Positions 23,201 through 44,727 of a stretch of 64,000 bases of DNA are shown here, one piece after another. The translations under genes and the position numbers were made by a program. The stretch is from a virus, in the IMG/VR virus record IMGVR_UViG_3300029342_000002; one strand, written 5' to 3'. The notes under the pieces were generated by a model. That model did no database searches and was not told the DNA's origin. It was given only the letters and a program-made list of their open reading frames with translations. Positions within the stretch are counted from its first letter, which is position 1. Each line of letters begins with the position of its first letter.

Positions 23201-24317
23201 CATAACTGGCCCGATAACCGCCTTCGCCAAGGCCCATGACGCTAAGAAGGAGCGTCAGATAAAGCTGGCAGAGCGCGAGCTGAAAGCCCTCGAAAACATG
23301 CAGACCACCATCAAGAACGCCATCGAGGACAGCTTGGGCGGCATCTACAACTACCGTATGGACGCGAAGACGACGGCGAAGATGAACAAGATAGTCAGCA
23401 GCTACGAGAATGGCGAGAAGAGCAACATCATGCGCATCGCCGGCATCAATCCGAGCGCCTACAGCAAGGAGACGTACGAGGCAGCACAGAAGAGCCTCGC
23501 TGACCCGACGGATGCCTATCAGGCAGAGCTGACGGGCCTGATGGCACAGCGAGACCAGCTACAGCGTCAGCGTGCCAACGAGGACGCCAAGAAGAAGACT
23601 GACAAGGACAAGCTGGCCGACTACGACCAACAGATAGAGGAGATGGAACGCTCTATAAAGAACGCCGCCAAGAACTTCCTCAAGGAGCTGTACGGCGTGG
23701 ACATGAAGAGCTGGGCAAGCCAACTGACAGACGCCGTGGTGAGCGCCTGGGAAAAGGGCGAGGACGCCATCGACGCCTACAAGAAAAAGGCGAAGGAAAT
23801 GGTGAAGGACCTCACGAAGAACATCATCTCGCAGAAGATAATGGAGCAAGCCCTTCAGAAGCCCCTCGACTTCCTGACACAGCAGATAGAGAAGAAGGGC
23901 AGACTGGACGAGTATGACGTGACACAGCTCGCCTCCGACCTCTACTCAGCCGGTGAGAACAGCGTGGCGAACATCACCGCTGTCCTTGAGGAGCTGAAGC
24001 GCAGAGGCTGGGATTTCTCCGAGAGCGGCAGTTCATCGACCACGAACACCATAAAGGGTGTGACGGAAGAGACCGCCGACCTCCTTGCCGCATATCTGAA
24101 CGCCATCCGCCTGGATGTGAGCGTGAACCGCGAGAATATCAAGGCAATAGCCACGAACGTGTCGCTCCTCCCTGCGATGAGCGAGATACAGAAGAGTCAG
24201 CTTGCAGCCATGAACCAACTCGTGACGCTCGCCCAGGTGCGTAACGACCGCATAGACGAGATAGTGACTTGGACCCGCAAGGTAAGCAACGGCTCATCAA
24301 AGATTTACGTGAAATAA
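17214..24317 (+). CDS. tape measure protein (2367 aa)
   Basis: Giant ORF after the major tail gene. Long coiled-coil regions, with a hydrophobic glycine-rich segment (about aa 1030-1090) typical of tape measure proteins. Confidence 0.9.
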   Translation: MADGNIGSLWLSLGIRDEMSKAIEKITKGMRGVDEATQKAKREGESLVKALEGINGNNFARVFREANAYIAKNSKEISGIAKILKNLGDSNAFTGTLLKAKGLEETAAALRKANAELAVLAKTEGKEADVSQWRTKISNALDYIKLLQDIIGQEKKLDNTKALNPNVDTKSLDNAKKSLEGFRAEMTRLLQSGGVDDSNVLGSFKKLLDVAKKDVQDIVATFKKDNPLSLFSGGAAKVETDLARVTEKLARLRDLMAEGTRKGFMTDMLGGSITELDKIMARLNAAKLNPTMLTDASQMRNLISDVLVEMTKATVAESAYRRERGKTVEVERAVNQEISNEHKAAQQERERDLQALSDYTKRYMELQEAKRKADDKAAKNAKDKARRRSEAEQRRIASDTAKMSRLYASMGLGIGKGERVGMRGLELGVNTAALDKALSEAAKFKKTIENTVVSMMGKGDRPAYEWYAAQVNRLKENLTNATAAQKELNAAQEKANRKAESDDAKRRADEKRKEAQAARELAQAEKQRQNQLEVTRSRIQSMERALHNLQEKRFTAKMLGIDTSEANAKIEHLKTQLIGLRNIQLGLSMGDTSFLGRVGNLGNGREVQAANQLAGTYSRLIGEVEKTNREKEKSIELERAHQQEVARTATKVRGDLAKAFEQAKNHSLGMNSTLQDLKSLFLQGGLVYGAQQFAMSIIQAGGEIEKQHIALQSIIGDVQNANVLFNQTKELALNSPFTFSELNKDVKQLAAYGVEYDELYDTTKRLADMASGLGVSFERIALAFGQVRSRGWLDGKELRQISYAGIPILQKLSEYYTKKEGQKVSTSEVKSRISNRGVDFEDVKNVFWEMTDAGGQFYNMQQVLSETLLGRYNKLKDAWEIMLSEFASGNNLVGSFFKTALDGATALVQALHTLALPVGAVVAGYAMRRALMGNTASSLLSTKGGLAKSAMEKQLRGENLTQIERNILSTKNKITGADLRSLMMSKQLNQSELARLRIAGKITQQQYLTYSALLKQQTGMNTFGMRTRRLLVQLRMMMAGMLANPMGAMRNMWGSFTTSALASFRVIGMGAKALGASLWSAIGGLPGLIISGVTFGISYLISKSQDLKQDMQQTMDEMKDRIKQIDDFMRDNNVGKIVRGDNEKEIDNAIESYKDKIREIAPESANAFEMKASEIESHKERLKYLEEQLDLLKEANKVAQEKSENTDLYEDLRDKTESAVKAAETLVKRSSIFGKGGVDEAEMGLYEDAEKEFDKFIGQLAARYKKEFPNIVNSTQEQQAMQTMLKNFLALKGASEEATMQIRSALNRALGLEDKDMEQAFASKLMNMVDSAFPEIADRIRGHKELDAESKRKVENLMRGAVSELSIAYPKWETELQRLLANSSFEAKILLVYDTGMIDNFDPFTGRIYNNVLGSNITQWKENAEKFQELKPLLKGVNDMYTARNNAKTELEKRYNIWKAEEDAKKKGKGDEATRLAVKKKYEDLRKAAYLGLGYEYVPEDKKSNRVPKGKGDKEDKVLKAWEERLNAFKSARQMYQKYKGLPNWGAKKADDMVRGLFPEVGDLSFDKYLESLEKLEKALKPTTTERKKAITALHRERSEWKYSEMLKPEADRLAADFAEILERGIRQADLHKALMEKTGDENFASLAFRDGMMWDDQTRGMAQMFEEMTGRKIDGLLDATDATAKKALEDNTDAYNLWKKITDLVRNNYTGYLEKAADAIKETATWEEKLIAVDAKWDERIKQADRRGDTSTAERFRQMRDKEKGQVMDAQFKQSQDYLNFFGAITEMGEVKAREVAAEIRQYLNTALRDGSIDAREYAKQIQQIDEQLRKLSERRKGFFNGGIVGIAERKTEEGNAKISMGATSVAAGEEKIREGRIKGDIALVAEGLKLKVTGEDLIRTGKKLVEEGMTLKKRFENIGSALGEIANIANGINDAFNQVKDMADALGIDTESDGWQDAQAAMSSLTSITGGISKTFKAVKSGDIGGAVSGVASIITGPITAFAKAHDAKKERQIKLAERELKALENMQTTIKNAIEDSLGGIYNYRMDAKTTAKMNKIVSSYENGEKSNIMRIAGINPSAYSKETYEAAQKSLADPTDAYQAELTGLMAQRDQLQRQRANEDAKKKTDKDKLADYDQQIEEMERSIKNAAKNFLKELYGVDMKSWASQLTDAVVSAWEKGEDAIDAYKKKAKEMVKDLTKNIISQKIMEQALQKPLDFLTQQIEKKGRLDEYDVTQLASDLYSAGENSVANITAVLEELKRRGWDFSESGSSSTTNTIKGVTEETADLLAAYLNAIRLDVSVNRENIKAIATNVSLLPAMSEIQKSQLAAMNQLVTLAQVRNDRIDEIVTWTRKVSNGSSKIYVK

Positions 24318-24921: not shown

Positions 24922-25377
24922 ATGCAATATTATAAAGTGTTGATGCAAAGAGAGACGGCAGGAGCTGCCGTAACGGACACCATTTCGGCGTTCGGCATGT
25001 ACTGCATGGACATTCCCTTCACGATGGCGGCCAAGGCAAAAGAGCCTTCGAAGCGCGAATGGAAGGACGAGGACGGCGACGACGAATACATACCCGCCGA
25101 AGGTCTGAAGATGAGCGCCTATGAGATGAGCGTGAAGTTCGGCATGAAGGGTGACAAGGACACGGCGAACAAGAACCTGAAAGCCTTCCTCGACTATCTG
25201 CGCGGCGGCACGATGAAGCTGTATTGCGACTACACAAAGATAGGCAGGCAGAACGTGCGCTTCGTGAGCATCGGCGAAGACGCTACGCTTGTAAGAGACG
25301 CCAACGGCGACTTGCTGATAATAAAGATAACATTCAAGGTGAACGATCCTGTCACCGACATAACCCTTACGATATGA
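24922..25377 (+). CDS. hypothetical distal tail protein
   Basis: 151-aa ORF with an ATGA overlap onto the next gene. Confidence 0.6.
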   Translation: MQYYKVLMQRETAGAAVTDTISAFGMYCMDIPFTMAAKAKEPSKREWKDEDGDDEYIPAEGLKMSAYEMSVKFGMKGDKDTANKNLKAFLDYLRGGTMKLYCDYTKIGRQNVRFVSIGEDATLVRDANGDLLIIKITFKVNDPVTDITLTI

Positions 25378-28300
25378 AAGAGCGTATACGAGTGTACCAT
25401 AAAGACGGAAGTCTTCTGAACGACATGGAAGGCAATGCCGTGGAGCTTAGCGCCGTGGAGATGACGGACGGCTGGATGGAGGACTGCTTCGTGCAGACCA
25501 CCATCGAAAGCGCGTACCCCATAAACTTCTCCATCGGCGACTACATTGTATACCGTGGCGAGCGCTATGAGCTGAACTACGACCCCGGCAAGGCGAAGAC
25601 AGCAAGAGCAGGCAGTGACAGAGGCGCTTTCAGATACGAGAACGTGAAGCTGAACGCCTTGCAGGACGAGCTTGTGAGAGCGCAGTTTCTGGACGTGGTA
25701 TTGGGAATGGAGAACACGGAAGAGCAGACGATACCCTACACAGCCCTTCCAAAATTCGGCTTCTACGTGCAGACCGTGGACGACCTCCTGGACCGCATAC
25801 AGGCGAACATGGACGAGCAGATGGGCGCAGGACTCTGGGCGCTGTACTCACGAAACAAGGAGCGCAGTCTGCAACGAGGCTGTGACGGAACCGTATGGGA
25901 GGAGATGTATGGCAAGGGCACTACTGAGACCATCATAGACTCCGCCGCTCTGACCATCGACAACCAGAACTGCTGGAACGCCCTCGCGTTAGTGAACTCG
26001 AAATGGGACATCAACTTCGTGGTGAGAGGACGCAACGTCTTCGTGGACACGACGGGGCTGGAGGTTCCGTACGAATTTGTCTACGGCAAGCGCAGGGGTC
26101 TGTACGAGATAACACAGACCGCTGATGACAGCCAAGCCGTGACCACCCGTCTGCGTGCCTACGGAAGTGAGAAGAACCTTCCGACACACTATTATGCCAA
26201 TCTGTGCGTGGACGTGTTCGGAGAAACATCGAAGATAAGTCATCTTGCCTCCTCGACGAACACCGTCCTGCATGTGACCATCCCGAGCCTTAGCTGGGCA
26301 GCAGCGGGCAGCTACTTCACGTCAGTGAGAGACGGATCGGCAGCGGAGAGCAGAGAATATAACGTGACGGTAAAGGCGGGCGACGTTGAAGGCAGAGGCT
26401 ATGCCGTGTCGTCAGCACGAAAGGAGGGTGAGGGGACAGTCACGATAATCCTGAACTCGTCAAACGACGAGTATGGAATGACGATGAATGACGTGGAGGA
26501 CTTCTACACCGCAGTGATGAAAGAAAGAAAGGTGTACTTCCTTCAAGGCGTGAACAAGCAGAGCTTCCCCTCGAAGAACATGATAGCCAATACGGACCAG
26601 ATGCCGTCCCACATGGCAGTGACAAGGCTGATGCTGCCGGGATTTCCAAAGATGTCCGTAAAGGAATGGTGGGACACGCAGGCTACCGAGGAAGAGAAGG
26701 CTTGGATAAACCCGAGCGGCAAGGAGCACCTTCTTTCAGAACTGAAGAACCGTCCCTACGTGGACTCGGTGAACATCAAGGAGCTTGGCGTGAGAAACGG
26801 CAGCGTGATGTTCGATACGGAGAACAAGAAGGAAGGCATCATCGAGATATATCCGACCATCGAAGAGATGACGGTGGACGGACAGCGCATAGACGAACTG
26901 AACAGCGGTTCTGCCATCAAAGACAACGGCATCTTCAAGGACGGACAGACCGTGCCTCCCTTCTCGGTGACGCTTTCCCCGAAGGTGAACTTCGACATAA
27001 ACATGCTGAAGAAGGAGGACTTCACAATCAGCATGAAGGACGGCAAGTGTGGCGGCAGAGAGTTTAAGGTGAACGGATCAGTGAAGGAGAACGGCGTGTG
27101 GAAGCTGACCCTTGACCGTGTGAAAGACGATGCCTTAGAGCTGTACTTCCCGAACAAGGACTTTCAGATGGAGAGCGGAGACCACTTCGTGCTGACCGGC
27201 ATAGAGATGCCCGACTCTTACGTGGAAGCTGCGTCGGCAAAACTTCTGAAATACGCCCTCGCATGGCTGGACAAGAACGACTATACGCGATACGTGTTCG
27301 AGCCGAAGGTGGACGAGATATTCATGGCGTATCAGCATGACAAGGCGAAGGCAGACACCACCGGCAAGACGGCGAGCCTTTACGAAACCCTCAAGGCAGG
27401 CAGTCTGCTGCACTTCAGCGACACAGACCTGAAGATAGACAAGAGCGGCGTCATAGAGAGACTCATCATCCGTGAGGAGCTTGGCAGCATCCCCACTTAC
27501 GATGTGACCATCAAGGAAGACAAGGACGTGGGAACGCTGCAAAAGATGCAGGACGCCATAGACACGGTCACGATGAGCGTGAAGTCGGGTCTCTCGTCGG
27601 CGCAGATAGAAGGTCTGATACGCAGCAGGGGAGCGAAATACTTCCTCTCAAAGACAGATCCCGACACAGCGCAGGACGTTATCCGCTTCCTTCGCGGTCT
27701 TACCGTTGGAAGGACTGGGGACGGATATGGCGTGACGGGCGAAGGGGCTGCTACGCTGAGCAGCTGTGTGGTGGAGAGCGTGCGCAACGCTGAGGCTACT
27801 GACGAGGACCGAACCATCGTGGGCGGCAAGGGCTTTGACCTCTATATGGGCAAGGACGGCAAGAGCCACCTCTACATTGACTACCTGACGACACGCACGA
27901 AGTTCTTCGCAGCAAGCGCTGAGGTAAGAAAGGTGAGCTATTCGGGCGGTACTACGCTCTTCTCAAACGCTGGCAGCACAATAATGAAGGTGGCTCACGT
28001 ACTGGATGATGCAGGAGTGACTGTCGGCTACAAATGCTATGCTGCTGCTGATGACGGCACAACACGGACGGCAAACTGGTGGCATGTGGGCATGATGGCG
28101 CTGTGCCAGACCTTTAATGTGAAGGCTGGTGAGACGGAGAACCTTCAGAACCGCTACTACTGGCGCCTTGTGGTGGGCACGGGACAGGAGACGTTAGAGG
28201 ACGGCAAGCTGTATGACTACGTGATACTGTCAAACAAGAGGGCGTTCATGGGCAGCGAGGCTTGCGTGCCGGTGACATCGCAAAGGGTGATAGGCGCTGA

Positions 28301-31223
28301 CGGCAAGGCGTTAGTGTTCGGCGACGTGATGATACAGGTGACCACAACGGGCGAGAAGCAGAGCTTGGCGGCGGTGTTCGAGGAGCAGGAGGGCAAGACT
28401 ACTGACGACGGCAACAACACCATAGCAAACCGCATGTTCTTCGGCTACGAGCCATCCGCGGACGGTGGGGAGCCTGACGTGCCACAGCCCTACGACGTGA
28501 TAGTACAGGCAGGAGACCAGATACAGTGGAACCGCTTCGGCAACCTCATCAAGCTAACGACATCTACGGAGGACGGAAGCGACAACGGAAACGCGCCCGC
28601 TATTGCGATGTATCATGCGATGGGTGCGCCTTACAAGGCGGGAGACACGGTGAATCCGTATCAGTGGAAGACGCTGACTTCCTTAGATTCCCCTCTCCTT
28701 GTGCTCAAGAATGCCAAGAACTTCAAGTTCTTCACCGATGACAACCCTGACAATATCATCGACCCTGTGACGGTGACTTACGACCTTGTACCATCCTCGG
28801 AATATATCATCCGCAAGCCGAACTCGCAGACGGCGACACCGAACGACGTGACCTTCACGCTGACAAAGCGCACGGGCAACGTGTCGGAAACGATGAAGGA
28901 CGGATATTTGCTGACGGCAGACTACACTACCACGGACGGCGAAAGCAAGAGCGGCGTGGCGATAAACCGCCTGTCTGACATCGGCGTGAGCTTCTACCTC
29001 CTCGCTTCGGTGACGGTACGGGCAACTGTCAAGGCGGACCACACCACCGTGGCTCTGACACTTCCGATCCTCTCTGACGGCGCGAAGGGCGACACGGGCA
29101 CAAGCTTCAAGGTGCTCGGCTACGCTCTTGCCCATGCCAAGACATACGCGGAGCTACAGCAGATAACGCCCACCGAGAACGGCCTTTATCTCGTTGACGA
29201 TACTACGGGCATGGAAGGTGGCAGCAAGCGTCCCTGTGTGGTGCAGTGGAAGAACGGAAAATATATCGTGTGTGACTCAAACGACGGCGACTCATACAAG
29301 ATAGGCGAAATACTCTGGACGAATACGGGCACGTACTGGCTGGACATAGGCAGCGTGAAGGGCGAGGGTGTGGTGATATCGGACATGAGCGTGACGTACG
29401 CCATATCTGACAGCGCTACGGTGACACCTACGGAATGGCAGTCGGCCATCATCGCCGCCACCGACGCGAAGCCCTATCTCTGGACGAGGACAACGGTGAC
29501 CTACAAGGATTCGGAGGGAGAGCATACGACGGTGTCATACGCCATAGCCTACAAGGGCAAGGACGGCGACAAGGGAGACCCCGGAGCAAACGGCAAGGAC
29601 GCGGTGGAGTTTATTCTAAAGAATGCGCCTCTTGTGTTTGACACAGACGAGAACGGCGTGGTATCGGCAAGTGTAAGCAAGACCGCCACCATACAAGTGA
29701 TGCGTTCCGGTAAGAACATCACATCGGAGGTGAGCAATCTCTTCCCGAGCAACAGCAACATGGGCTGCGGAAAACCGACGCTGACAAAGCGGACTGACGG
29801 CATAGACGTGACGATATCGGGAGCTTCGATAAACAAAGACAGCAAGCTCGGTGTGAGTGTGACGAGCGGATACGTAATCGTGTATATGGCAATCGGAAGT
29901 ACGCTATACTCTCAGCAGATACCCTTTTTGGTGAACTTGGCAAAGTTTACGGGGACGATATCGGCTGACAACAAGAAGCTGCGGACGGATTATACGGAGC
30001 TGACGAACCGTGTAGGAGCAGTGGAGACGGACGTAAACGGAATCCCTATCAAGACGCAGGAAAAGCTGACGAAATACACCTCGACCATTGAGCAGACGGC
30101 CCGTGAAATATCGCTGAAGGTGACGGAGGAGACCGTGAACATGGCACGTAACTGCATCGTCGGCTCGGCGCTGAGGGAATATGACGAAATAACGCCAATC
30201 AACGGTACGAAGAACGTGACGATAATGACGCAGGGCGTGGGTGGCACTAACTATGCCCAATGCTACTGTATCGGAGCCACTGCAAACTCTTGGACGGGCC
30301 TGTACTTCAAGGACGTGCGCGTGAAGCCGCAGACAAAATACATATTCAGCGTATGGATGAGAATGACGGCAAAGCCCGACAATGGCAGCTACGTGGCTAT
30401 AAAGACATACAACACCTCCGTGACTGGCACGGAGGTGGCACGCATCCCGTTCCCTGACAGTCAGACACTGAACGTTTGGGCATTGTACAAGGTGGCGGTG
30501 AGCGTTCCGGCAGCATGTAACCGCCTTCTGATAGAGACAGGCGTGAGAAAGAACGGAGCGATAGACCTGTGTCGTCCGATGCTGGAAGAAGGCGATACGT
30601 ACCAAGGCTGGAGCCTCTCGCCTTACGACGTAACCATAGACGATGCAGTGGTGGCGACAGGCTTAGACATCAAGAACGGCATCATCAAGGCAACGGCTGA
30701 TAAATTCGAGATAAGAAACAACAACGGCGAACAGACGGCTACCGTGAACGAGAAGGGACGCTTGGAGGTAAAGAGCGGTTTGTTTTCGGGTTTTATAGTG
30801 AAGAAGATGACGACACTCACTCCTGATAACATTTCCGAATATCTTAAAAGCTCACAGAGCAATGGCTATTTAGACATAGACTTTTCGACGGCTGGCTCAT
30901 ACGTGTGCTTTACGGGCGCGATGAAGGCGAAATTTGGAGACAATTATCCTTCACCTGTACTTCCTTACTACAATATAGGCAGTATAAGTGCATCACTCGG
31001 CGTAACGGCGGAAGAAGCAATATCCTACATAGGACAAATCGTGATAATAGCGAACAAGAGCGATACGACGGTAAACGTTGTTTGCGGAGGAACTATCAAG
31101 GGTGGCGGCACACAGTCGCAGTGGATAGAAACGGGCTACATGGCTGTGTTGACTTGCGAGTTCGAGTACACATCGGTAAAGAACTATAAAATAGTATGGA
31201 ATGGATATTGTGTGAAAATATAA
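25374..31223 (+). CDS. giant distal tail / host-specificity protein (1949 aa)
   Basis: Start taken at M51 of ORF 25224 (ATGA coupling). Position follows the tape measure and distal tail genes. Contains a short collagen-like stretch GKDGDKGDPGANGKD near 29555-29602. Confidence 0.8.
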   Translation: MKERIRVYHKDGSLLNDMEGNAVELSAVEMTDGWMEDCFVQTTIESAYPINFSIGDYIVYRGERYELNYDPGKAKTARAGSDRGAFRYENVKLNALQDELVRAQFLDVVLGMENTEEQTIPYTALPKFGFYVQTVDDLLDRIQANMDEQMGAGLWALYSRNKERSLQRGCDGTVWEEMYGKGTTETIIDSAALTIDNQNCWNALALVNSKWDINFVVRGRNVFVDTTGLEVPYEFVYGKRRGLYEITQTADDSQAVTTRLRAYGSEKNLPTHYYANLCVDVFGETSKISHLASSTNTVLHVTIPSLSWAAAGSYFTSVRDGSAAESREYNVTVKAGDVEGRGYAVSSARKEGEGTVTIILNSSNDEYGMTMNDVEDFYTAVMKERKVYFLQGVNKQSFPSKNMIANTDQMPSHMAVTRLMLPGFPKMSVKEWWDTQATEEEKAWINPSGKEHLLSELKNRPYVDSVNIKELGVRNGSVMFDTENKKEGIIEIYPTIEEMTVDGQRIDELNSGSAIKDNGIFKDGQTVPPFSVTLSPKVNFDINMLKKEDFTISMKDGKCGGREFKVNGSVKENGVWKLTLDRVKDDALELYFPNKDFQMESGDHFVLTGIEMPDSYVEAASAKLLKYALAWLDKNDYTRYVFEPKVDEIFMAYQHDKAKADTTGKTASLYETLKAGSLLHFSDTDLKIDKSGVIERLIIREELGSIPTYDVTIKEDKDVGTLQKMQDAIDTVTMSVKSGLSSAQIEGLIRSRGAKYFLSKTDPDTAQDVIRFLRGLTVGRTGDGYGVTGEGAATLSSCVVESVRNAEATDEDRTIVGGKGFDLYMGKDGKSHLYIDYLTTRTKFFAASAEVRKVSYSGGTTLFSNAGSTIMKVAHVLDDAGVTVGYKCYAAADDGTTRTANWWHVGMMALCQTFNVKAGETENLQNRYYWRLVVGTGQETLEDGKLYDYVILSNKRAFMGSEACVPVTSQRVIGADGKALVFGDVMIQVTTTGEKQSLAAVFEEQEGKTTDDGNNTIANRMFFGYEPSADGGEPDVPQPYDVIVQAGDQIQWNRFGNLIKLTTSTEDGSDNGNAPAIAMYHAMGAPYKAGDTVNPYQWKTLTSLDSPLLVLKNAKNFKFFTDDNPDNIIDPVTVTYDLVPSSEYIIRKPNSQTATPNDVTFTLTKRTGNVSETMKDGYLLTADYTTTDGESKSGVAINRLSDIGVSFYLLASVTVRATVKADHTTVALTLPILSDGAKGDTGTSFKVLGYALAHAKTYAELQQITPTENGLYLVDDTTGMEGGSKRPCVVQWKNGKYIVCDSNDGDSYKIGEILWTNTGTYWLDIGSVKGEGVVISDMSVTYAISDSATVTPTEWQSAIIAATDAKPYLWTRTTVTYKDSEGEHTTVSYAIAYKGKDGDKGDPGANGKDAVEFILKNAPLVFDTDENGVVSASVSKTATIQVMRSGKNITSEVSNLFPSNSNMGCGKPTLTKRTDGIDVTISGASINKDSKLGVSVTSGYVIVYMAIGSTLYSQQIPFLVNLAKFTGTISADNKKLRTDYTELTNRVGAVETDVNGIPIKTQEKLTKYTSTIEQTAREISLKVTEETVNMARNCIVGSALREYDEITPINGTKNVTIMTQGVGGTNYAQCYCIGATANSWTGLYFKDVRVKPQTKYIFSVWMRMTAKPDNGSYVAIKTYNTSVTGTEVARIPFPDSQTLNVWALYKVAVSVPAACNRLLIETGVRKNGAIDLCRPMLEEGDTYQGWSLSPYDVTIDDAVVATGLDIKNGIIKATADKFEIRNNNGEQTATVNEKGRLEVKSGLFSGFIVKKMTTLTPDNISEYLKSSQSNGYLDIDFSTAGSYVCFTGAMKAKFGDNYPSPVLPYYNIGSISASLGVTAEEAISYIGQIVIIANKSDTTVNVVCGGTIKGGGTQSQWIETGYMAVLTCEFEYTSVKNYKIVWNGYCVKI

Positions 31224-36767: not shown

Positions 36768-36821
36768 TAGTATATGTTATCAACGTAAACAACTGAATTT
36801 CAGAGAATAATAAAAAATGTG

Positions 36822-36860
36822 AGCGTGTTATGGCTTTATTGGTCGTAACACGCTAATTTT
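36822..36860 (+). terminator. rho-independent terminator
   Basis: Stem AGCGTGTTA...TAACACGCT (9 bp) followed by AATTTTG. Confidence 0.55.
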
Positions 36861-36919
36861 GTGCCTGTAACGTTACAGAATAGTGTTAGTTAATATTGAG
36901 GATTTAAAAAGATTGTATT

Positions 36920-37645
36920 ATGGAGATGACAGATGCAAAAGTAGTAGAGAAGAAAATCTACGAAGAGGGAAAGAAGCACGATGATTATGCTTCTAAGGCA
37001 ACAGGTAATGCTGGTCTTACCCTTGGTATCATCGGCACGGCACTCGGTGCTGGCGCTTGGTTGCTTGGCGGTAACAACCGCAGCGTGTTTGGTTCTCTCG
37101 GTGGCAGCAACATGCCTGAGAACGTGAACATCAACGCCTATGGGGCTAACGCAAGCTCAAATCAGCCAACCGCCTTGCAGGTAATGGAGAAGGAATGCGC
37201 TGATGAGGTGAAGCTGCTTACCGACATGTTCGGTTTGAAGCTCGACACCGCTAACAAGTTCTACGCTATGCGTGAGACTGACATCGCAGAGAAGTTCTCT
37301 ATGTACAAGGGTGCTAACGATGCTATCAACGCTGAGAACCGCCGTGCAATGCAGGCTGAGTTTGGTCTTTACAAGTCTCAGATTGATGCGGACTTCGGTC
37401 TGTACAAGAATCAGAGAGACCAGTATGACGCACTACAGGCTAAGTATAGTGACCTCGACAAGAAGGTAGCCGTGATGGAGGCTCTTACTCCTTACAAGGA
37501 GAAGCTGATGATGGCTTACGTTAACGAGAAGTGTTGCCGCAAGATAGATGGTCAGCTTGTGCTCCCTTCTACGCCAGTAGTTACTGGTTACGGCAGCTAT
37601 TGCTGTAACGGTACTGCTCCTTCCACTCCCACTACAGGAGCGTAA
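36920..37645 (+). CDS. hypothetical membrane-anchored protein
   Basis: 241 aa. TM segment GLTLGIIGTALGAGAWLL, and an internal repeat EFGLYKSQIDADFGLYKNQRD. Confidence 0.6.
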   Translation: MEMTDAKVVEKKIYEEGKKHDDYASKATGNAGLTLGIIGTALGAGAWLLGGNNRSVFGSLGGSNMPENVNINAYGANASSNQPTALQVMEKECADEVKLLTDMFGLKLDTANKFYAMRETDIAEKFSMYKGANDAINAENRRAMQAEFGLYKSQIDADFGLYKNQRDQYDALQAKYSDLDKKVAVMEALTPYKEKLMMAYVNEKCCRKIDGQLVLPSTPVVTGYGSYCCNGTAPSTPTTGA

Positions 37646-37768
37646 CAGAGCTGTAAGGAAGTCGGTTAGACGGACTAAGAAAAAATGAGTTGGTGAGGGG
37701 CGTTTGCCCTCGTTGGTGGATGCCCTCTCACCTCTCTATAACATATCACCAACTTAAAGATATTGATT

Positions 37769-38260
37769 ATGATGAATTTTGGAAACAGCCCATTATTGGA
37801 TATGGGTACAGGCCAGCAGCATCCGCAGATGATGGATGCCGAGCTACAGAAGATGTATGAGGCAATACAGCAGAAGCGAGCATCTATCAATATGCAAGCA
37901 CAGCAGTCTTCCACCCCTTTATGGGATGAGATTGACAAGATTGAAGACAATCTTACGGGCGCACAACGTCAGTACTTGATGCAGAATCAAGAGTACGTTG
38001 ACAGCTTGCAATATGTGTCAAAACTTGTGCAAGACGAGGAATTGCGCATCATACGTCCTCGTATTGAAAGCACTCAGCAAGGACAAGACGCATTGAAGAA
38101 ACATCTATCATTGATGCAACGACTGAGAAAAGAAGTAGCGCAAGCAGAGGAACAAAAATCAGCTATGCTTAACGATTATATGACAAACCATAGTGACAAG
38201 ACTTGGCAGGAATATCTTGCTATGGTTCAAGGAACGAAGAAGGGAGGGAATAAGAAATGA
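37769..38260 (+). CDS. hypothetical Q-rich coiled-coil protein
   Basis: First ATG of ORF 37763. About 163 aa. Confidence 0.55.
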   Translation: MMNFGNSPLLDMGTGQQHPQMMDAELQKMYEAIQQKRASINMQAQQSSTPLWDEIDKIEDNLTGAQRQYLMQNQEYVDSLQYVSKLVQDEELRIIRPRIESTQQGQDALKKHLSLMQRLRKEVAQAEEQKSAMLNDYMTNHSDKTWQEYLAMVQGTKKGGNKK

Positions 38261-38688
38261 ACTTACAAAAACTGAAAGAACGTCTTGCGCCGTCAATGGA
38301 AACCTGGATAGACGCAAGAATTGACGACATGATAAAAGGCAATCCGTCGCTTGCCATACCTTCTGTGTATATGAAACGAGCAGCGCACAATATCGTTTGT
38401 CGTAACAAGGAAAAATGGGAAGAGAAAATTGACGATCTATCCCTGTTTGTCGCTGATGAAAATGGAGTTGTTGATGCGGAATCTGTTTTCGAAGACGCGA
38501 TGCAAATACTGAAAGCGATGGAGAAAAAGCCTTTTGATATCGGGCTTCTTCATGGCACAATAGGCGAAGGATGTATCTCTATTGATATGCCTGACGGTAT
38601 TATCTCTGCCTTGTTGTTTGGCAGCAACAAGAGTATAGCCATTACCACAGATGATATTGCCGAATTAAAGAATATATTAATCACGTAA
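38257..38688 (+). CDS. hypothetical protein
   Basis: 143-aa ORF with an ATGA overlap onto the upstream gene. Confidence 0.6.
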   Translation: MNLQKLKERLAPSMETWIDARIDDMIKGNPSLAIPSVYMKRAAHNIVCRNKEKWEEKIDDLSLFVADENGVVDAESVFEDAMQILKAMEKKPFDIGLLHGTIGEGCISIDMPDGIISALLFGSNKSIAITTDDIAELKNILIT

Positions 38689-38703
38689 GATAAATTTAGC
38701 GGT

Positions 38704-39111
38704 ATGAAAACAATACAGACAAATACGCTTGCCGAAAAGCTGTTTTGGTTTTACAGAATCGGCATAAGAGTGATACCTATACTCCTTATGGTTTTACACT
38801 GGCTGGGTGTGCATTGGTTTCACCATAACGCCGCATCAATGGGCTTGGATCTGAACGAGAACGCCGTTTTGGTGGTGTCGTTATACGCATTGGCGTATGT
38901 CGTACTGCCTGCCGTTCTGCTGCCGGCAAGCTTTCTTTTCAAGTTCGGCTGGGTGTGGCGAATACCGTTCCTGTATCTTGCAGGAGTTATTCTGATAAGG
39001 TTAGGGCACGGCACGCTGTGTATTTCAGAAACGACACGGATAGCGGACTATACGCTGATTGTTCTAACGTTACTGCTGTACGGTCGGGCGTTTACGTTGC
39101 AGGATAGATAA
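38704..39111 (+). CDS. polytopic membrane protein (paralog of 35901..36407)
   Basis: 135 aa with about 4 TM segments and motifs shared with 35901..36407. Confidence 0.65.
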   Translation: MKTIQTNTLAEKLFWFYRIGIRVIPILLMVLHWLGVHWFHHNAASMGLDLNENAVLVVSLYALAYVVLPAVLLPASFLFKFGWVWRIPFLYLAGVILIRLGHGTLCISETTRIADYTLIVLTLLLYGRAFTLQDR

Positions 39112-39112
39112 C

Positions 39113-39161
39113 AAAAAAACGCGCACGGACAACAAGATGTTACTCCTGCTGCCCGTGCGCG
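39113..39161 (-). terminator. rho-independent terminator of the leftward early operon (convergent junction)
   Basis: Perfect 9-bp stem CGCGCACGG...CCGTGCGCG. On the - strand it is followed by T7. Confidence 0.7.
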
Positions 39162-39173
39162 GTTGACATCGGT

Positions 39174-39920
39174 CTACTCTCCGAAGTTTTCCGGTCTGTA
39201 CTCCGGGTTCAGCTGCAACGCATACTCTCCTGCGCGGTCGTAGATGCCCTCGTTAGAGAGTTTCGTTATGATATTCTTCGCTGCCTGAACGCTGTCCGCA
39301 TCGTCGTTGATGTCAATGTCCGGCATCCCCGGTATCGAGTTTATTACGGACTGCATGGCGTTGTTCCAGTTGTGTTGCAAATCCAGAGCATTGCCTTCGT
39401 TGAAGTCCGGGCGCAAGTCTATTCCTATCCTCTTCTGGATATTGTCAAACAGGTTTCTGAACAGGCTTACCGCAACATCTATCAGCACCATTGCCGCCTC
39501 CATACGGGCGATGATTTTGCTCTTCGGCACATGGTTCTTCAAGAAATAGTTGTCGATGCAGTAATAGAGCGTTTTGACGAGCGGTTTGAGTTCCGCCTCC
39601 GACGCGTCAGACAGGTCAAGCCAAAGCTGATAGCGGTCGGCAAGAACAAAGCGCATCTTCGCATCCCATGTGTTGTATGCGGCAAGAGCCTTGTTGATGC
39701 TTTGCTTTGTCTTTTGACGATACAGCTTCTTGTCCTCTTTAATTGCGCCCCAAGCGTCTATCATAGCTGTCTGGGCAATATTGTACGCCGACCCCATTGT
39801 GATGTAATACAGCGAACAATAGCGGTCAATGCTCTTTAACAATTCCTCTTTCTGCTTTACGCTTGGCGCAATGACATACGGTCTTCTTGGGGTGCGGCTT
39901 ATTAAATAGCTTGCGTTCAT
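39174..39920 (-). CDS. hypothetical protein (248 aa), last gene of the radical SAM operon
   Basis: Start taken at M24 (MNASYLIS), 2 nt after the upstream stop. Confidence 0.6.
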   Translation of the reverse strand: MNASYLISRTPRRPYVIAPSVKQKEELLKSIDRYCSLYYITMGSAYNIAQTAMIDAWGAIKEDKKLYRQKTKQSINKALAAYNTWDAKMRFVLADRYQLWLDLSDASEAELKPLVKTLYYCIDNYFLKNHVPKSKIIARMEAAMVLIDVAVSLFRNLFDNIQKRIGIDLRPDFNEGNALDLQHNWNNAMQSVINSIPGMPDIDINDDADSVQAAKNIITKLSNEGIYDRAGEYALQLNPEYRPENFGE

Positions 39921-39922
39921 GA

Positions 39923-40258
39923 TTATATCGCGTTTGTGATTTGTAAATCGTGCGTCTCGCCTATCACGCCGACAACCGGTATTCCGCAAGCGTCAGCCAC
40001 ACGGCGTTCTGTTTCACAGCCTTTGGAACAACGCCATCGGTTCGGTACGACAATGCCGTCGCAGCCGAGGAGCAGACGTAAGTCCTCTTTCATGTGCTCC
40101 GTGTGCGGCGCAGAGTCGGGCAGCGGTTTAGCCATGGGATTGACTGCCTTGTAGCCGAGGATTGTCAGTTCATTCTCGATCCGAGCGAAAAACTTGTGTC
40201 GCTCGTTGAGGTTGTAGCCAGTAATCGGCGATGATATGTATATTTTCTTTTTGCTCAT
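39923..40258 (-). CDS. DUF4406 / nucleoside 2-deoxyribosyltransferase-like protein
   Basis: The pattern KIYISSPITGYN...AVNP...LLLGCDGIVVPNRW.CSKGCETE...A...GIPV fits the DUF4406/NDT-like fold signature. From memory; needs an HMM search. Confidence 0.6.
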   Translation of the reverse strand: MSKKKIYISSPITGYNLNERHKFFARIENELTILGYKAVNPMAKPLPDSAPHTEHMKEDLRLLLGCDGIVVPNRWRCSKGCETERRVADACGIPVVGVIGETHDLQITNAI

Positions 40259-40272
40259 TTTTGTTTATCAGA

Positions 40273-41283
40273 TTAAAATATCACTTCTTTGTAGCTTGAT
40301 GTTGGCTTCTTGCCGGACAGGATTGCATTGCCACAAGTAATCAGTCCGTTGTCCTCGTCATACGACGGAACGAACACTATTACATCAAATCCGTTTGCCT
40401 TCAAATCTTCTTCCACTTTCTTGTACGGCACAAACGAGTCGTAACCTCCGCTTGTCTGAATATGGTTGGCTTCGCAGCTGTTCGTTCGGTGGAGCGGTGT
40501 AATCTTACACATGAACTTGCTTGGGTCGAACATGGACGCAAGTACCTTGCCGTCAATGATAGAGTCGTCAGCAAGTGCGAAGTTAAGAGTGTACTTGCGA
40601 CCGCGCGGAGTTTCGAGTGTGTCAGCAAGCTCTGCAATATCTTTCAATGGTAGAGCATTGCCCGAGAACAGGTATTCTCGCTGCGCGTCGTCGGTAGAGT
40701 TTATAGAGAACTGCAAGCCTGCGTTTCCGTTGTAGTCGGTATTCTTAACTCTAACCCATTTGTGGATAAAATCATATAAGTTACAATTATGCTTCGGGAG
40801 CATTGTGCTTACTACAGGATGCACAAGTGAATTTCCGATGTAGGGAACAATATCTACGCGCAAGAAGAAGCGCGCGTGCTCGATTACAGCCTCGTTCCAT
40901 GTCGGCTCGCCCATGCGTGCATAGTGTACATTAAGGCGTTTGGTGTGATTAACCTCTGGGTGCATACTTAATGCCGTTGTTATCTCGTTGCGCAGGTCGT
41001 TCAGTGTCACGTTGCGTCCCGGTCCGACTTTCGGCACGTCACAGAACTTGCAGTTCATCGAACAGCCGTACTGGGTAGAGATTGTTATCACCCATTTTTC
41101 GGTTAGGGGCATTGGCGTTCCGTTCGGCACACCATTCAGCTCTCTTGTTATGCCGAGGAAGTCGGCTTTGATGTTTGCATCTTTCCCGTAGTCGGCTACT
41201 GTCAGAAACTCCAACACGCCTTTGTTTCCTTTTGCGGTGTAGATTTCACCTGTAGGAACTTTGATTTCTTTGAGTATTTGCAT
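40273..41283 (-). CDS. radical SAM enzyme, RlmN/Cfr-like
   Basis: STQYGCSMNCKFCDVPKVGPGRNV (CxxxCxxC), ARMGEPTWN and C-terminal LITCGNA align with RlmN SSQVGCxxxCxFC..G..RNL, MGMGEP and AACGQL. Confidence 0.75.
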   Translation of the reverse strand: MQILKEIKVPTGEIYTAKGNKGVLEFLTVADYGKDANIKADFLGITRELNGVPNGTPMPLTEKWVITISTQYGCSMNCKFCDVPKVGPGRNVTLNDLRNEITTALSMHPEVNHTKRLNVHYARMGEPTWNEAVIEHARFFLRVDIVPYIGNSLVHPVVSTMLPKHNCNLYDFIHKWVRVKNTDYNGNAGLQFSINSTDDAQREYLFSGNALPLKDIAELADTLETPRGRKYTLNFALADDSIIDGKVLASMFDPSKFMCKITPLHRTNSCEANHIQTSGGYDSFVPYKKVEEDLKANGFDVIVFVPSYDEDNGLITCGNAILSGKKPTSSYKEVIF

Positions 41284-41285
41284 TG

Positions 41286-41534
41286 CTATTTGATTTTGCG
41301 TGATGTTTTACTTTTAACTGCGCCAATTCTTATGCGCACGTATCGAGTTATTAGTTCTCTCGTACGATACCACCTAAGCACCTCGTACGTAATAAACACG
41401 CCGCACATTTTAGGGTATTGGCGTGGTTCTGTTTCGATTGATGTGCTTACCTTCTTAAACTTCACCTTAATAGTTTTATGGAACCACACACGAAACTTTA
41501 ATTTGTAACGCTTCTTTGTTTTTCTAATCTTCAT
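41286..41534 (-). CDS. very basic 82-aa protein
   Basis: Internal ATG of ORF 41286..41630 (MKIRKTKKRYKLKFRVWF...). The stop lies 2 nt before the radical SAM start. Coding status is uncertain. Confidence 0.35.
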   Translation of the reverse strand: MKIRKTKKRYKLKFRVWFHKTIKVKFKKVSTSIETEPRQYPKMCGVFITYEVLRWYRTRELITRYVRIRIGAVKSKTSRKIK

Positions 41535-41904
41535 TTTCTTTCTTTTTATAGTCCAAACAGCCTTCCTCCATTGTTGGCATGATACGGAAGCCGCCGTTCT
41601 CAGCATCATCAATAAGTTCTTCTGACGCATGAAACGAGTTGAACATTTTGGCGTTATGGTACTTCAAGCATACATTTACATGAATTTCTTTTTCGTATTC
41701 ATGTTCGCGCCCTGTTTGTGGATGAAACCCCGTCCTTGTAATAGTTGCGGTTTGCTCCGTTTCTTTGTACCACTTGCATGAATAGCAAGCGGCAAGATTG
41801 CAAGGTGATTTGCCGCAATACTTTTCCTCATGTTTTACGCAACCTCTTTCCGTAAGGAACAGCTTTCCGCAGTACGAGCAGCTGTATGCGTCTACTCTAA
41901 TCAT
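41524..41904 (-). CDS. Cys-rich protein with a C2H2-like zinc-finger motif
   Basis: YSCSYCGKLFLTERGCVKHEEKYC plus additional Cys pairs. Confidence 0.6.
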   Translation of the reverse strand: MIRVDAYSCSYCGKLFLTERGCVKHEEKYCGKSPCNLAACYSCKWYKETEQTATITRTGFHPQTGREHEYEKEIHVNVCLKYHNAKMFNSFHASEELIDDAENGGFRIMPTMEEGCLDYKKKENED

Positions 41905-42034
41905 GCTCCACCTCCTTCTTAATGGCTTCGAGCTGCTGTATGATGTTGCCTATCGTCTTGCCGCTGTAATCAACGGCAATTTCTTTCAGTACGGCAATCT
42001 GTGCCGTCAGTCTGATGTAATCTGCCTGTTTCAT
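41897..42034 (-). CDS. small hypothetical protein (45 aa)
   Basis: Hand-translated as MKQADYIRLTAQIAVLKEIAVDYSGKTIGNIIQQLEAIKKEVEHD. Overlaps the next start by 8 nt. Confidence 0.35.
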   Translation of the reverse strand: MKQADYIRLTAQIAVLKEIAVDYSGKTIGNIIQQLEAIKKEVEHD

Positions 42035-42049
42035 TGTTGCTTTGTTTTA

Positions 42050-42193
42050 TTAAATTTTCCGTGAACCATTCTTTGCTTCTCTGTTCGATAGCTTCAAAAG
42101 CTGTATAGCTTCGAGCATTGACATGCTGCTGCCACAGTCGAACCCTGCGTCTTTTAGTTTCTTTATATGCTGATTCTCCTCTTCATGTGTCAT
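42050..42193 (-). CDS. small hypothetical protein (47 aa)
   Basis: Hand-translated as MTHEEENQHIKKLKDAGFDCGSS... ATGA overlap with the upstream ORF. Confidence 0.35.
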   Translation of the reverse strand: MTHEEENQHIKKLKDAGFDCGSSMSMLEAIQLLKLSNREAKNGSRKI

Positions 42194-42372
42194 TGTTCTC
42201 TGTTTTCGGGTTTGTGTTCTTCGTTCCATTCTTCCTGAAAGTCCGCGAGTTTTCTGATAATACCCATGAAAACGCTAATATTTATAGGTTCCGTGTTTGT
42301 CGGATCTGTAATTCTGACGTGTCTCTCATCGTCAGACATCCGAACTCTAAATGTTATCGTTGTTTCCTGCAT
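42190..42372 (-). CDS. hypothetical protein
   Basis: 60-aa ORF within the coupled chain of genes. Confidence 0.45.
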   Translation of the reverse strand: MQETTITFRVRMSDDERHVRITDPTNTEPINISVFMGIIRKLADFQEEWNEEHKPENREQ

Positions 42373-42763
42373 CTTCGCCTCCTTTCTGCTTGTCGTGGAT
42401 GTTGCCGATAATTATAAACCGAATGTATTTCAGTATCACTCCCAAAGGTATATCGTCACACTTTCCTTTTTCTCTTATGGGCCTTAAAGTGAACGCTCCG
42501 AGGTTTTCGGACCACTCCACTGCAAAGGTCGAGTTGTCATATCTAAGTATATCTCCCTCATATATTTCTTTGCCGTTTTTGTCTATGCAGCCTGTGAACT
42601 GGCAGACGGTATCGGGGTCAACCGTAAAGTAGTTGAATATAGTATCATGGTCGTGTTCAAATATTCTTACCGTTCCGTCGGGAAAAGTAAGGAGCGAGCC
42701 GCATGCTATCTTGCCTTTACATTTAGGGCAAGTGCACTCGCCCTTAAATTTGATTGTTCTCAT
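42347..42763 (-). CDS. YopX-family protein
   Basis: QFTGCIDKNGKEIYEGDIL...IIGNIHD matches the YopX signature. Confidence 0.8.
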   Translation of the reverse strand: MRTIKFKGECTCPKCKGKIACGSLLTFPDGTVRIFEHDHDTIFNYFTVDPDTVCQFTGCIDKNGKEIYEGDILRYDNSTFAVEWSENLGAFTLRPIREKGKCDDIPLGVILKYIRFIIIGNIHDKQKGGEDAGNNDNI

Positions 42764-43716: not shown

Positions 43717-44139
43717 TTAAGGTCTATCCAGTTCAAATTTACTATCCAAGCCCAAGCCAAATAAGAGGTGTTGGAACTGGTGAACATATTTTAGTTCTAT
43801 AATACTATCACGATATTCAAAATCAGCGAAATAGAAAAATCTGTCAAACATATCATATTGTATATACACTTCATCCTTGTAGTAGAGCAGAGTCCTATTG
43901 CTTGATTTACTTTTCTTCCACTTCCCATTCTCCTCCAGTATTTCGGGAGTTAGAGGAATAGGCTTTATATCTACAGGTCTTACTTCTATGGAAAAGTAAG
44001 CATCGTCATACTCAATATCAGGATTATAGTCATGATGGCATACTTTTATGAAATAATTGGTCTTGTAGGTTTCCAAAACCCTTGCCAATTTTCTTCTGAA
44101 TATAACCCAATCACCTGGGATGTATCTGTCTTTTTTCAT
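43717..44139 (-). CDS. paralog family member 1 (LTPEILE.NGW / VHQ.QHLLF motifs)
   Basis: Shares IKPIPLTPEILEENGKW and YVHQFQHLLFGLG with 44278, 47424 and 51440. Confidence 0.65.
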   Translation of the reverse strand: MKKDRYIPGDWVIFRRKLARVLETYKTNYFIKVCHHDYNPDIEYDDAYFSIEVRPVDIKPIPLTPEILEENGKWKKSKSSNRTLLYYKDEVYIQYDMFDRFFYFADFEYRDSIIELKYVHQFQHLLFGLGLDSKFELDRP

Positions 44140-44277: not shown

Positions 44278-44727
44278 TTAGACAATTATTTTTATGCTCT
44301 CCTTGGTGGCAGCGATGATATTCTGTATCTCGTGAAGGAAGGATATCTCGCACAATTCACATGCGCAATAGAATGCGCTGTAGGCATCGTATTGAAGGTA
44401 ATGCCAGATTTCCAAACAACTATCTTCATGCTCGTATTGACACCATTCAAAACCATCTTCATCTATGTGATGTCTGACATTTTCGAAACCGTTCTTTCTG
44501 AGAAACTCACTGTTGATAGGAATACCCTCGATGTCATCGCACCAAACACCGTGAGAGAACTCCCATTCTTCCCTAACGATTTGAAGTAGATCTGCAAGTC
44601 CTTTCTTTTCTTCATGTGTCCGCTCGGAGTCTATGGCTACGACCTCACAAAGTGCTCCTTTGGGAAACATGCAGTTATCACTGCTGACCCTTACATAATT
44701 TCCTATTCTTAAATCTTCCGCTTTCAT
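44278..44727 (-). CDS. paralog family member 2 (divergent)
   Basis: Contains IEGIPINSEFLRKNGF and FLHEIQNII. Confidence 0.6.
   Translation of the reverse strand: MKAEDLRIGNYVRVSSDNCMFPKGALCEVVAIDSERTHEEKKGLADLLQIVREEWEFSHGVWCDDIEGIPINSEFLRKNGFENVRHHIDEDGFEWCQYEHEDSCLEIWHYLQYDAYSAFYCACELCEISFLHEIQNIIAATKESIKIIV

Follow-up and report, generated by a model that had tools for sequence, protein, structure and literature searches.

The 64,000-nucleotide stretch of viral DNA analysed here (IMG/VR record IMGVR_UViG_3300029342_000002; hereafter the window) encodes on its minus strand, at 40273..41283, a 336-amino-acid radical S-adenosylmethionine (SAM) protein, which we refer to as rSAM. Judged by sequence profile and predicted fold, rSAM is a conserved [4Fe-4S] radical-SAM enzyme with RlmN/Cfr as its nearest relatives, and its profile scores place it outside RlmN/Cfr, in an undescribed sister family with an RlmN-like scaffold. 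As for its function, the genes found around its cellular and phage relatives point, with about even confidence on our part, to a small-molecule enzyme of nucleotide metabolism related to nicotinamide adenine dinucleotide (NAD) or ADP-ribose (ADPR). The fold and the superfamily are known, whereas the family itself, its loss of RlmN-specific features and its NAD context appear to be new. Indeed, our literature searches on radical SAM together with NAD or phage NAD+ reconstitution (NARP), on DUF5662, on DUF4406 and on queuine lyase found no description of the rSAM family or of an NAD link.

A sister family of RlmN and Cfr

We examined the rSAM translation for the RlmN/Cfr-like motifs that the first-pass annotation of this DNA had listed. 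As a result, STQYGCSMNCKFCDVPKVGPGRNV, ARMGEP and LITCGNA were all located in the 40273-41283 translation, with the CX3CX2C motif in its S-x-Q-x-G-C context. In an hhalign comparison with E. coli RlmN (probability 98.9%, E = 3e-17, RlmN 103-363 covered), C74, C78 and C81 of rSAM corresponded to the cluster cysteines C125, C129 and C132, and C317 in the LITCGNA loop corresponded to C355, the methyl-carrying cysteine. The resolving cysteine C118, already reported missing in the first-pass annotation, is replaced by T67 at the aligned position.

Family searches gave a different picture from full RlmN/Cfr membership. The only Pfam match was to Radical_SAM, below threshold. The best NCBIfam matches were indeed RlmN/Cfr models, but these were local, confined to residues 58-145, and reached 22-32 bits against cutoffs of 290-633 (TIGR00048, 32.5 bits against 290; CfrAB, 29.8 against 530; TIGR04432, 27.9 against 550). 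The protein was covered over its full length by phrog_24834, a group of unknown function, with 578 bits. When a profile built from rSAM together with 16 of its close relatives was run against all PDB sequences, only RlmN/Cfr entries were matched, the best being 6fz6 (E = 6e-16, residues 58-268).

We also built an AlphaFold2 model of rSAM on a diverse family alignment of 43 sequences (25-78% identity to the window protein), which reached a pLDDT of 94 and a pTM of 0.92. The top Foldseek matches of the model were E. coli RlmN structures (5hr7, 3rfa and 4pl1; E = 9e-11 to 1e-8), and the non-RlmN radical-SAM folds ranked after them with E > 1e-5, in line with the RlmN/Cfr-like character proposed in the first-pass annotation. 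The likeness is a distant one, with TM-scores of 0.52-0.58 (query-normalised 0.58 for the best match) and 14% identity in the structural alignment. Both the SAM-cluster and the GEP motif are retained in rSAM, as are the core barrel and, towards the C-terminus, the Cys-Gly loop on which RlmN carries the methyl group. Residues 1-102 of RlmN, including the N-terminal RNA-binding domain, have no counterpart; instead, the first 60 residues of rSAM are predicted to form a small beta unit of three strands with a clade-specific insert.

The replacement of the resolving cysteine extends over the family. Across the 43-sequence alignment, the C118 position holds T, I, N, A, V, S or E, and cysteine in none of the sequences, whereas the C355-type cysteine is kept in 37 of them. 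In a tree set of 99 sequences, which includes the window protein, the C118 position is threonine in rSAM itself, in 13 of the 14 NAD-linked genome members, in 12 of the 13 viral representatives and in every one of the 52 further genome members with a residue aligned there. Other conserved residues of the enzyme are E25, K63, R123, Q191, S193, T197, R202, R229, K260 and E310. Since the RlmN/Cfr cutoffs were failed, the N-terminal domain is absent and the resolving cysteine is replaced, the enzyme is not a member of RlmN/Cfr, an outcome that the first-pass annotation had itself named as refuting its reading. In RlmN itself, loss of C118 traps a covalent enzyme-RNA adduct (title of PDB entry 5hr7), and a natural RlmN-like enzyme with the methyl-carrying cysteine and without the resolving one is mechanistically intriguing. 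The isoelectric point of rSAM was also considered as a proxy for RNA binding and was uninformative.

The family is very abundant in gut viromes. A word-indexed search with rSAM returned more than 7000 clusters at E <= 1e-3, mostly of unnamed gut-metagenome proteins at 70-95% identity, and single 90%-identity clusters hold about 1700-1800 sequences; an exhaustive search gave 675 family representatives at the 50% level. The closest cultured phage relative, seen at the protein level only, is that of Bacteroides phage Versailles (72.6% identity), which grows on B. caecimuris, and a close relative of the window occurs in a cultured Leyella stercorea isolate. The function of rSAM is therefore directly testable, because the family is both abundant and present in cultivable systems.

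A distant branch at about 25% identity occurs in phages of Vibrio, Aeromonas, Salmonella, Stenotrophomonas, Yersinia and Moorella and in one crAss-like phage. In the subgroup from Vibrio, Aeromonas, Salmonella and Stenotrophomonas phages, both catalytic cysteines are present (TVMC-ISTQTGC and GGGCGQLW), and by hhalign this two-Cys subgroup is nearer to the family of the window protein (E = 1.5e-41) than to RlmN (E = 1e-23). Other distant relatives are fusion proteins, in which a QueT-like energy-coupling factor (ECF) S-component, rSAM and a methylthioadenosine/S-adenosylhomocysteine (MTA/SAH)-nucleosidase-like PNP_UDP_1 domain are joined, or rSAM is joined to an isochorismatase or preceded by a flavoprotein; these fusions suggest a small-molecule substrate. 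The S-component-rSAM fusions, about 590-830 aa long and mostly with the MTA/SAH-nucleosidase-like domain, are found as stand-alone genes in gut Bacilli/Clostridia metagenome-assembled genomes (MAGs) (L085-L090 and L145; proteins P0144, P0149, P0152 and P0180).

Existing labels for family members, namely 'Fe-S oxidoreductase', '23S rRNA methyltransferase' and 'prohibitin', are a warning against annotation transfer. The last of these was seen on the two-Cys-type rSAM of Stenotrophomonas phage BUCTxx99 (WPH68542.1; L168 4881-5840), where 'prohibitin family protein' is an apparent misannotation. In a crAss-like Kehishuvirus (L002), the gene for a truncated rSAM homolog is located one position downstream of a genuine SPFH/band-7 gene.

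NAD genes around cellular and phage relatives

We scanned 185,579 species genomes, obtained 79 rSAM loci, and analysed their neighbours by clustering, Pfam and local hidden Markov models. As a result, NAD genes were found beside rSAM in 14 of the 79 loci, which span Alphaproteobacteria, Firmicutes, candidate-phyla bacteria, one Gammaproteobacterium and one Woesearchaeote. Six gut alphaproteobacterial MAGs carry NAPRTase(PncB)-isochorismatase(PncA)-rSAM-NadE-DUF5662-NrtR with spacers of 6-17 nt, where NrtR is an NAD-specific regulator. A Firmicutes MAG carries PncA-PncB-Nudix-rSAM-NadE-NMNAT-like-CinA/PncC-methyltransferase-NrtR; shorter rows are NadE-NMNAT-rSAM on a Peregrinibacteria contig, rSAM-NMNAT-NrtR in the Woesearchaeote, and rSAM-NMNAT in the Gammaproteobacterium and in another candidate-phylum bacterium.

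These NAD-linked members, 51-54% identical to the window protein, are its closest cellular relatives. One alphaproteobacterial operon member (L110) matches phrog_24834 over its full length with 354 bits, and in a neighbour-joining tree the NAD-linked members flank the Bacteroidales-phage clade on both sides.

Three further observations concern the cellular loci. DUF5662 (PF18907; 4864-5361 in L110) is fixed in the alphaproteobacterial operon (L110, L116, L119, L120, L123 and L143), and sequence comparison with the PDB gave no solved relative, nor did we find literature on it. A fusion of rSAM with an isochorismatase domain (P0210) was discounted as NAD evidence, as it belongs to a distant subgroup in unrelated contexts. 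In Oscillospiraceae (Dysosmobacter segnis L128, rSAM at 4684-5628; also L124, L125 and L130), rSAM lies in a conserved block, probably a prophage, with a Thg1-like gene, of the tRNA-His guanylyltransferase family, closely upstream on the same strand.

Phages are described as rebuilding NAD+ by NARP1 (Adps and Namat), NARP2 (Nampt and Nmnat) and NARP3 (PnuC and NadR) (bioRxiv 10.1101/2024.02.11.579819; PMC13464706). We counted NAD genes within 5 kb of rSAM in a sample of 80 IMG/VR loci from the two-Cys phage branch, and found them in 25 (Nampt/Namat-like in 23 loci, NMNAT-like in 16, Nudix-domain in 15, Prs/Adps-like in 4 and NadE in 1). All of these genes share the strand of rSAM, and in 20 of the 80 loci an NAD gene lies within 1.5 kb. 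By Pfam, one jumbo-phage locus (L197) has NMNAT and Nudix, a phrog_335 'phosphatase', rSAM, PF15891 and Nampt in a row; others read Nudix-rSAM-Nampt (L196), Prs-like and then rSAM-Namat-like (L220), and NadE-rSAM-NMNAT (L241).

Seven cultured Vibrio phages carry a 'ribose-phosphate diphosphokinase', a 'nicotinate phosphoribosyltransferase family' gene and rSAM in a row, and the NARP1 genes are usually annotated as that Prs-like/NAPRT-family pair (bioRxiv 10.1101/2024.02.11.579819). On a metagenome contig, a homolog of 52% identity to the window protein, which has threonine and cysteine where RlmN has C118 and C355, forms part of the row NAPRTase-rSAM-PTH2-Nudix-NAD kinase-Prs-T4 RNA ligase. 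In L197, the 173-aa ORF just upstream of rSAM (4478-4999) that matches phrog_335 shows a Macro-like G-G-G-I-A by eye, and may be the ADPR-1''-phosphatase Adpp of extended NARP1 operons.

The gene directly downstream of rSAM in the window (39923..40258, minus strand) had been read as DUF4406/deoxyribosyltransferase-like, and this was borne out. Its 111-aa product matches PF14359 across profile positions 1-90 of 91 (57.4 bits, where the gathering score is 22; E = 2e-15) and phrog_355 with E = 9e-21, gives a weak match to PF05014, and carries S-K-G-C-E-T-E near its C-terminus; sequence comparison with the PDB gave no solved relative. With its predicted nucleoside 2-deoxyribosyltransferase/Rcl-like fold, the DUF4406 protein is probably an N-glycosidase or a transferase acting on a nucleoside or nucleotide.

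By the more sensitive jackhmmer search, DUF4406 was also found 1-5 kb from rSAM in five divergent loci (L049, L050, L066, L138 and L141). Independently of this, in the two-Cys branch PF15891, a separate family that is named for, and weakly matches, nucleoside 2-deoxyribosyltransferase, stands directly after rSAM or between rSAM and Nampt in 9 of the 80 loci, and within 5 kb in 12. A nucleosidase-type partner thus recurs in three forms, as DUF4406, as PF15891 and as the fused PNP_UDP_1 domain. A partner of predicted nucleosidase fold is a recurring companion of rSAM, not an obligatory one.

The case for NAD salvage is made by the tight operons with NrtR, by the varied gene orders across distant phyla, by the occurrence in both subfamilies, and by the insertion of rSAM between NARP2-type genes. 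On this explanation, rSAM would have branched from RlmN/Cfr, and its target would be a small NAD-related molecule instead of rRNA or tRNA: a nucleotide of pyridine or adenine, a nucleoside, or something released when NAD+ is broken down. Its product or substrate would, in cells, feed Preiss-Handler or Nampt salvage; in phages, it would serve as an accessory that keeps or rebuilds the NAD+ pool during infection, for example against an NAD+-depleting defence. The window phage would express rSAM together with DUF4406 from the 3' end of its early operon, and rSAM would act early in infection, probably helped by the DUF4406 protein, whose likely part in this pathway would be to make or consume the free base or the ribosyl group.

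Two kinds of chemistry could be envisaged. An RlmN-type methylene transfer is plausible, in which methyl-Cys317 would donate to an electron-poor carbon of a heteroaromatic ring (adenine or pyridinium) and something would have to stand in for the resolving cysteine; equally possible is a radical reaction of lyase or isomerase type, for which Cys317 would supply the hydrogen.

More tentatively, and with rather less than even confidence, the family as a whole may represent an unrecognised radical-SAM step in pyridine-nucleotide metabolism, placed in NrtR-controlled operons of small-genome gut bacteria, candidate phyla and DPANN archaea, and captured by many phages, often with a nucleosidase-fold partner. 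Such a step might turn an unusable NAD-related compound, made by a defence system or taken up with the diet, into a salvageable one, or might yield an analogue of NAD resistant to immune NADases. Should the NAD link prove real, an unexpected radical enzyme would be added to one of the best-mapped cofactor pathways.

Several observations weigh against the NAD explanation. No NAD gene was found in the 64-kb window (hmmsearch at E < 1e-4, tblastn, and Pfam on 10 early genes) or in any of 80 window-type, Bacteroidales-phage contigs (hmmsearch at E < 1e-4 and tblastn), so that for the clade of the window the link is one of homology and phylogenetic bracketing. Among the genome loci, 65 of 79 have no NAD neighbours, and many of these look like prophages; more distant cellular relatives have unrelated surroundings, one case being a position downstream of an AMP-binding enzyme (P0229). 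The NAD-positive loci are not all phylogenetically independent, and adjacency in phages could reflect the clustering of accessory or anti-defence genes instead of one pathway. To our knowledge, no known NAD reaction requires radical chemistry, and the two-Cys branch could consist of true RNA methylases. In addition, a homolog of the next gene of the operon, orfA (39174..39920), with 49% identity, directly follows a DUF4406 gene in a phage region without rSAM, and the link between DUF4406 and rSAM is weak because DUF4406 thus pairs with orfA in the absence of rSAM.

Of the competing explanations, the one that survives best, which we consider rather unlikely, is a target unrelated to NAD: rSAM would, for instance, modify phage DNA or the nucleotide pool together with DUF4406, or would mature a protein or peptide, and the NAD neighbours would be accessory islands or a result of subfamily divergence. 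It fits the window clade, which never shows NAD neighbours, and the divergent Bacteroidales phages, in which replication, recombination and DNA-methylase genes are the neighbours; DUF4406-like segments in PHROGs annotated as MazG-like pyrophosphatase and hydrolase likewise suggest nucleotide-pool roles. However, tight cellular operons with NrtR are hard to explain as chance islands, NAD genes accompany rSAM repeatedly, in varying order and in either subfamily, and the operon members are highly conserved with the window protein over the full length, reaching the same PHROG. A nucleotide-modifying or counter-defence role, as the first-pass annotation had imagined for a module of six genes, is still a reasonable class of idea; what has fallen is the co-conservation of the six.

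An RNA methyl synthase of RlmN/Cfr type, which would act at C2 or C8 of adenosine in host or phage rRNA or tRNA and so remodel translation, possibly with Cfr-like resistance, is less probable still, and we regard it as unlikely. RlmN/Cfr are the nearest relatives by sequence and fold, the equivalent of the methyl-carrying cysteine is conserved, the distant phage branch keeps both catalytic cysteines, and one source labels a homolog '23S rRNA (adenine2503-C2)-methyltransferase'. Nevertheless, rSAM scores about tenfold or more under every RlmN/Cfr cutoff, the N-terminal part of RlmN is absent, and the threonine for Cys118 prevails throughout the clade of the window, with cysteine there in none of the aligned family members; nor would such an enzyme be expected to be fused to a nucleosidase and the S-component of a transporter, or to stand in tight NAD-salvage operons. 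Since the RNA-binding N-terminal domain and the resolving cysteine are missing, methylation of 23S A2503 and a phenicol, lincosamide, oxazolidinone, pleuromutilin and streptogramin A (PhLOPSA) resistance phenotype are unlikely, and the remodelling of host rRNA/tRNA and the Cfr-type resistance suggested at first lose their footing; to read rSAM as a resistance gene would be a false alarm.

Salvage of queuosine precursors by a QueL-like rSAM, with DUF4406 as a queuosine nucleosidase and preQ1 supplied for tRNA or for 7-deazaguanine DNA, was raised by distant relatives (34-39% identity) in which rSAM is fused with a nucleosidase domain and a QueT-like ECF S-component, an arrangement that mirrors the C. 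difficile queK-qrtT-queL cluster (PMC11130926), but a queuine lyase identity was rejected on the Foldseek/PDB comparison and a negative riboswitch scan and is very improbable: QueL (6p78, 230 aa) ranked only 22nd in Foldseek (query-normalised TM-score 0.41, E = 1e-3), on a level with radical-SAM folds of a generic kind, and was absent among the sequence matches, no preQ1 riboswitch was found upstream of the one fusion gene scanned, no tgt/DpdA or queCDEF was seen near the family members examined or in the window, and the QueT matches were marginal (30-40 bits against a cutoff of 33.7).

The early operon and its phage

The rSAM gene is the fourth of six ORFs that stand in a tight row on the minus strand at 39174-42034, as the first-pass annotation had described; coordinates and spacings agree, with successive overlaps of 8 and 11 nt and gaps of 2, 14 and 2 nt in the 5'->3' direction. 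The row begins with a small ORF of 45 aa (41897..42034) that has no family assignment. The second ORF (41524..41904) encodes 126 aa with 9 Cys and 6 His, possibly a zinc-binding protein; the C2H2-like finger claimed for it is a weak hint only, as the matches to zf-C2H2_4 (E = 0.22) and Zn_ribbon_3 (E = 0.024) are both far under the cutoffs. The third ORF (41286..41534), an internal-ATG form of a 114-aa ORF at 41286-41630, encodes the 82-aa protein that had been called very basic; it is basic, but Lys and Arg make up 33% and not the 40% or so first estimated.

After rSAM and the DUF4406 gene, the operon ends with orfA, of 248 aa when started from the ATG at 39920 and entered in the ORF list as 271 aa from an upstream TTG start (39989). 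The orfA product gave no match in Pfam, NCBIfam or PHROGs, no Foldseek match below E = 0.03 and no informative context. Its AlphaFold2 model (pLDDT 85) is all-helical. Only 54 clusters of homologs were found, all phage-like, and others of these occur with neither rSAM nor DUF4406. Most likely, orfA and the two genes for the basic and the Cys-rich product are unrelated early genes that are specific to this lineage.

To examine the proposal that the six genes form a co-conserved module, we fetched 80 IMG/VR contigs with a window-type query, clustered the neighbours and searched them against Pfam. In about 42 of the 80 contigs, rSAM is at least 93% identical to that of the window, and DUF4406 and orfA lie directly downstream. 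Among these close relatives the small upstream ORFs vary, the slot of the 82-aa basic protein is variable, and the 126-aa Cys-rich protein is present in only about half. At 58-76% rSAM identity all neighbours differ, and include a ParB-like protein, a Holliday-junction resolvase, DUF1351, DUF4494, a C5 DNA methylase and, in jumbo contigs, a second rSAM. The conserved six-gene module was thus rejected, also in view of the orfA-DUF4406 pair that occurs without rSAM; the six genes are a case of lineage-specific synteny.

Two side observations belong to these loci. The second radical-SAM gene of the jumbo contigs (L069-L071, 230-378 kb) is a different one of 324 aa (4532-5506), located two genes upstream of the window-type rSAM. 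In two IMG/VR contigs (L037 and L038, 7025-8107), a one-base frame change merges DUF4406 and orfA into a 384-aa ORF, and in the window, too, the reading frame of orfA continues upstream without a stop into the 3' end of the DUF4406 gene. A DUF4406-orfA fusion was set aside, since the two contigs are identical and the change is indistinguishable from an assembly error, although a real fusion or a frameshift site is also possible.

The strong terminator predicted at the end of the operon was found as an intrinsic terminator on the minus strand (39161..39120), with an 18-bp stem of 11 G-C pairs followed by T7. It begins 12 nt past the last stop codon of the row, where the rightward late genes of the plus strand and the leftward early genes of the minus strand converge, and it marks the end of the leftward operon.

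The window represents the genome of a gut Bacteroidales phage, whose plus strand carries ORFs of terminase size as well as giant ones of tail type and whose minus-strand early block also holds YqaJ, DUF6291 and a helix-turn-helix (HTH) protein; no tRNAs were found in the 64 kb. Its composition is strongly split, with 39-42% G+C in the early block (about 42-50 kb) and 50-57% in the late block (12-30 kb), inside which lie the giant plus-strand ORFs 17214-24317 (2367 aa) and 25224-31223 (1999 aa). The early operon also contains tandem paralogs on the minus strand (43717-44139, 140 aa; 44278-44727, 149 aa), both matching phrog_10066, of unknown function.

A megablast search of 39000-42300 against 50,697 phage records found no near-identical known phage. 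A contig of the cultured Prevotellaceae isolate Leyella stercorea MSK.21.24 (L144; NZ_JAHQUY010000011.1, 54.5 kb) is 89.6% identical over 5.6 kb to 36778-42406 of the window and encodes an rSAM 98% identical to ours. The phage on this contig may be a prophage or carried by the isolate, and the match suggests a Prevotellaceae host for the window phage and points to its genus.

Comparison with known systems

QueL (6p78), like rSAM a radical-SAM enzyme, acts on a salvaged small heterocycle, and its gene stands in a cluster with those for a nucleosidase and an ECF S-component, an arrangement reminiscent of the fusion proteins of the family. It belongs, however, to another, smaller radical-SAM subgroup, without a sequence match and with a generic fold match only.

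RlmN/Cfr (TIGR00048, NF000424; 3rfa, 5hr7, 9p0p) share with rSAM the CX3CX2C motif in S-x-Q-x-G-C, the GEP motif, the partial-barrel core and the cysteine of the C-G-(Q/N) loop. In contrast to them, rSAM lacks the N-terminal RNA-binding domain and has threonine in place of Cys118, and the TM-score is about 0.55. The rSAM family also occurs in NAD-salvage or stand-alone phage contexts, unlike the housekeeping rlmN locus, and includes the transporter and nucleosidase fusions.

Within the superfamily of nucleoside 2-deoxyribosyltransferase and Rcl (DNPH1), comprising PF05014, PF15891 and PF14359, the DUF4406 protein of the window matches PF14359 over the full length and PF05014 weakly, and PF15891 follows rSAM in the NAD clusters of jumbo phages. 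In contrast, the sequence search gave no solved relative of the DUF4406 protein, and DUF4406 is widespread in phages without rSAM.

The phage NAD+ operons offer a contextual parallel to the proposed role in NAD metabolism. They include accessory enzymes that turn defence-made NAD derivatives into usable precursors, namely the Macro-domain phosphatase Adpp (bioRxiv 10.64898/2026.01.28.702374) and the glycosidase RyDEP (PMC13232231), and the papers on NARP1/2, NARP3, Adpp and RyDEP mention no radical-SAM component. The window phage differs from these systems in that it lacks every core NARP gene (Nampt/Namat, Nmnat, Adps/Prs, PnuC/NadR); such genes are seen only with relatives of rSAM. Those relatives of rSAM lie in or next to Nampt/Namat, NMNAT-Nudix and Prs/Adps-like genes, just as Adpp and RyDEP do.

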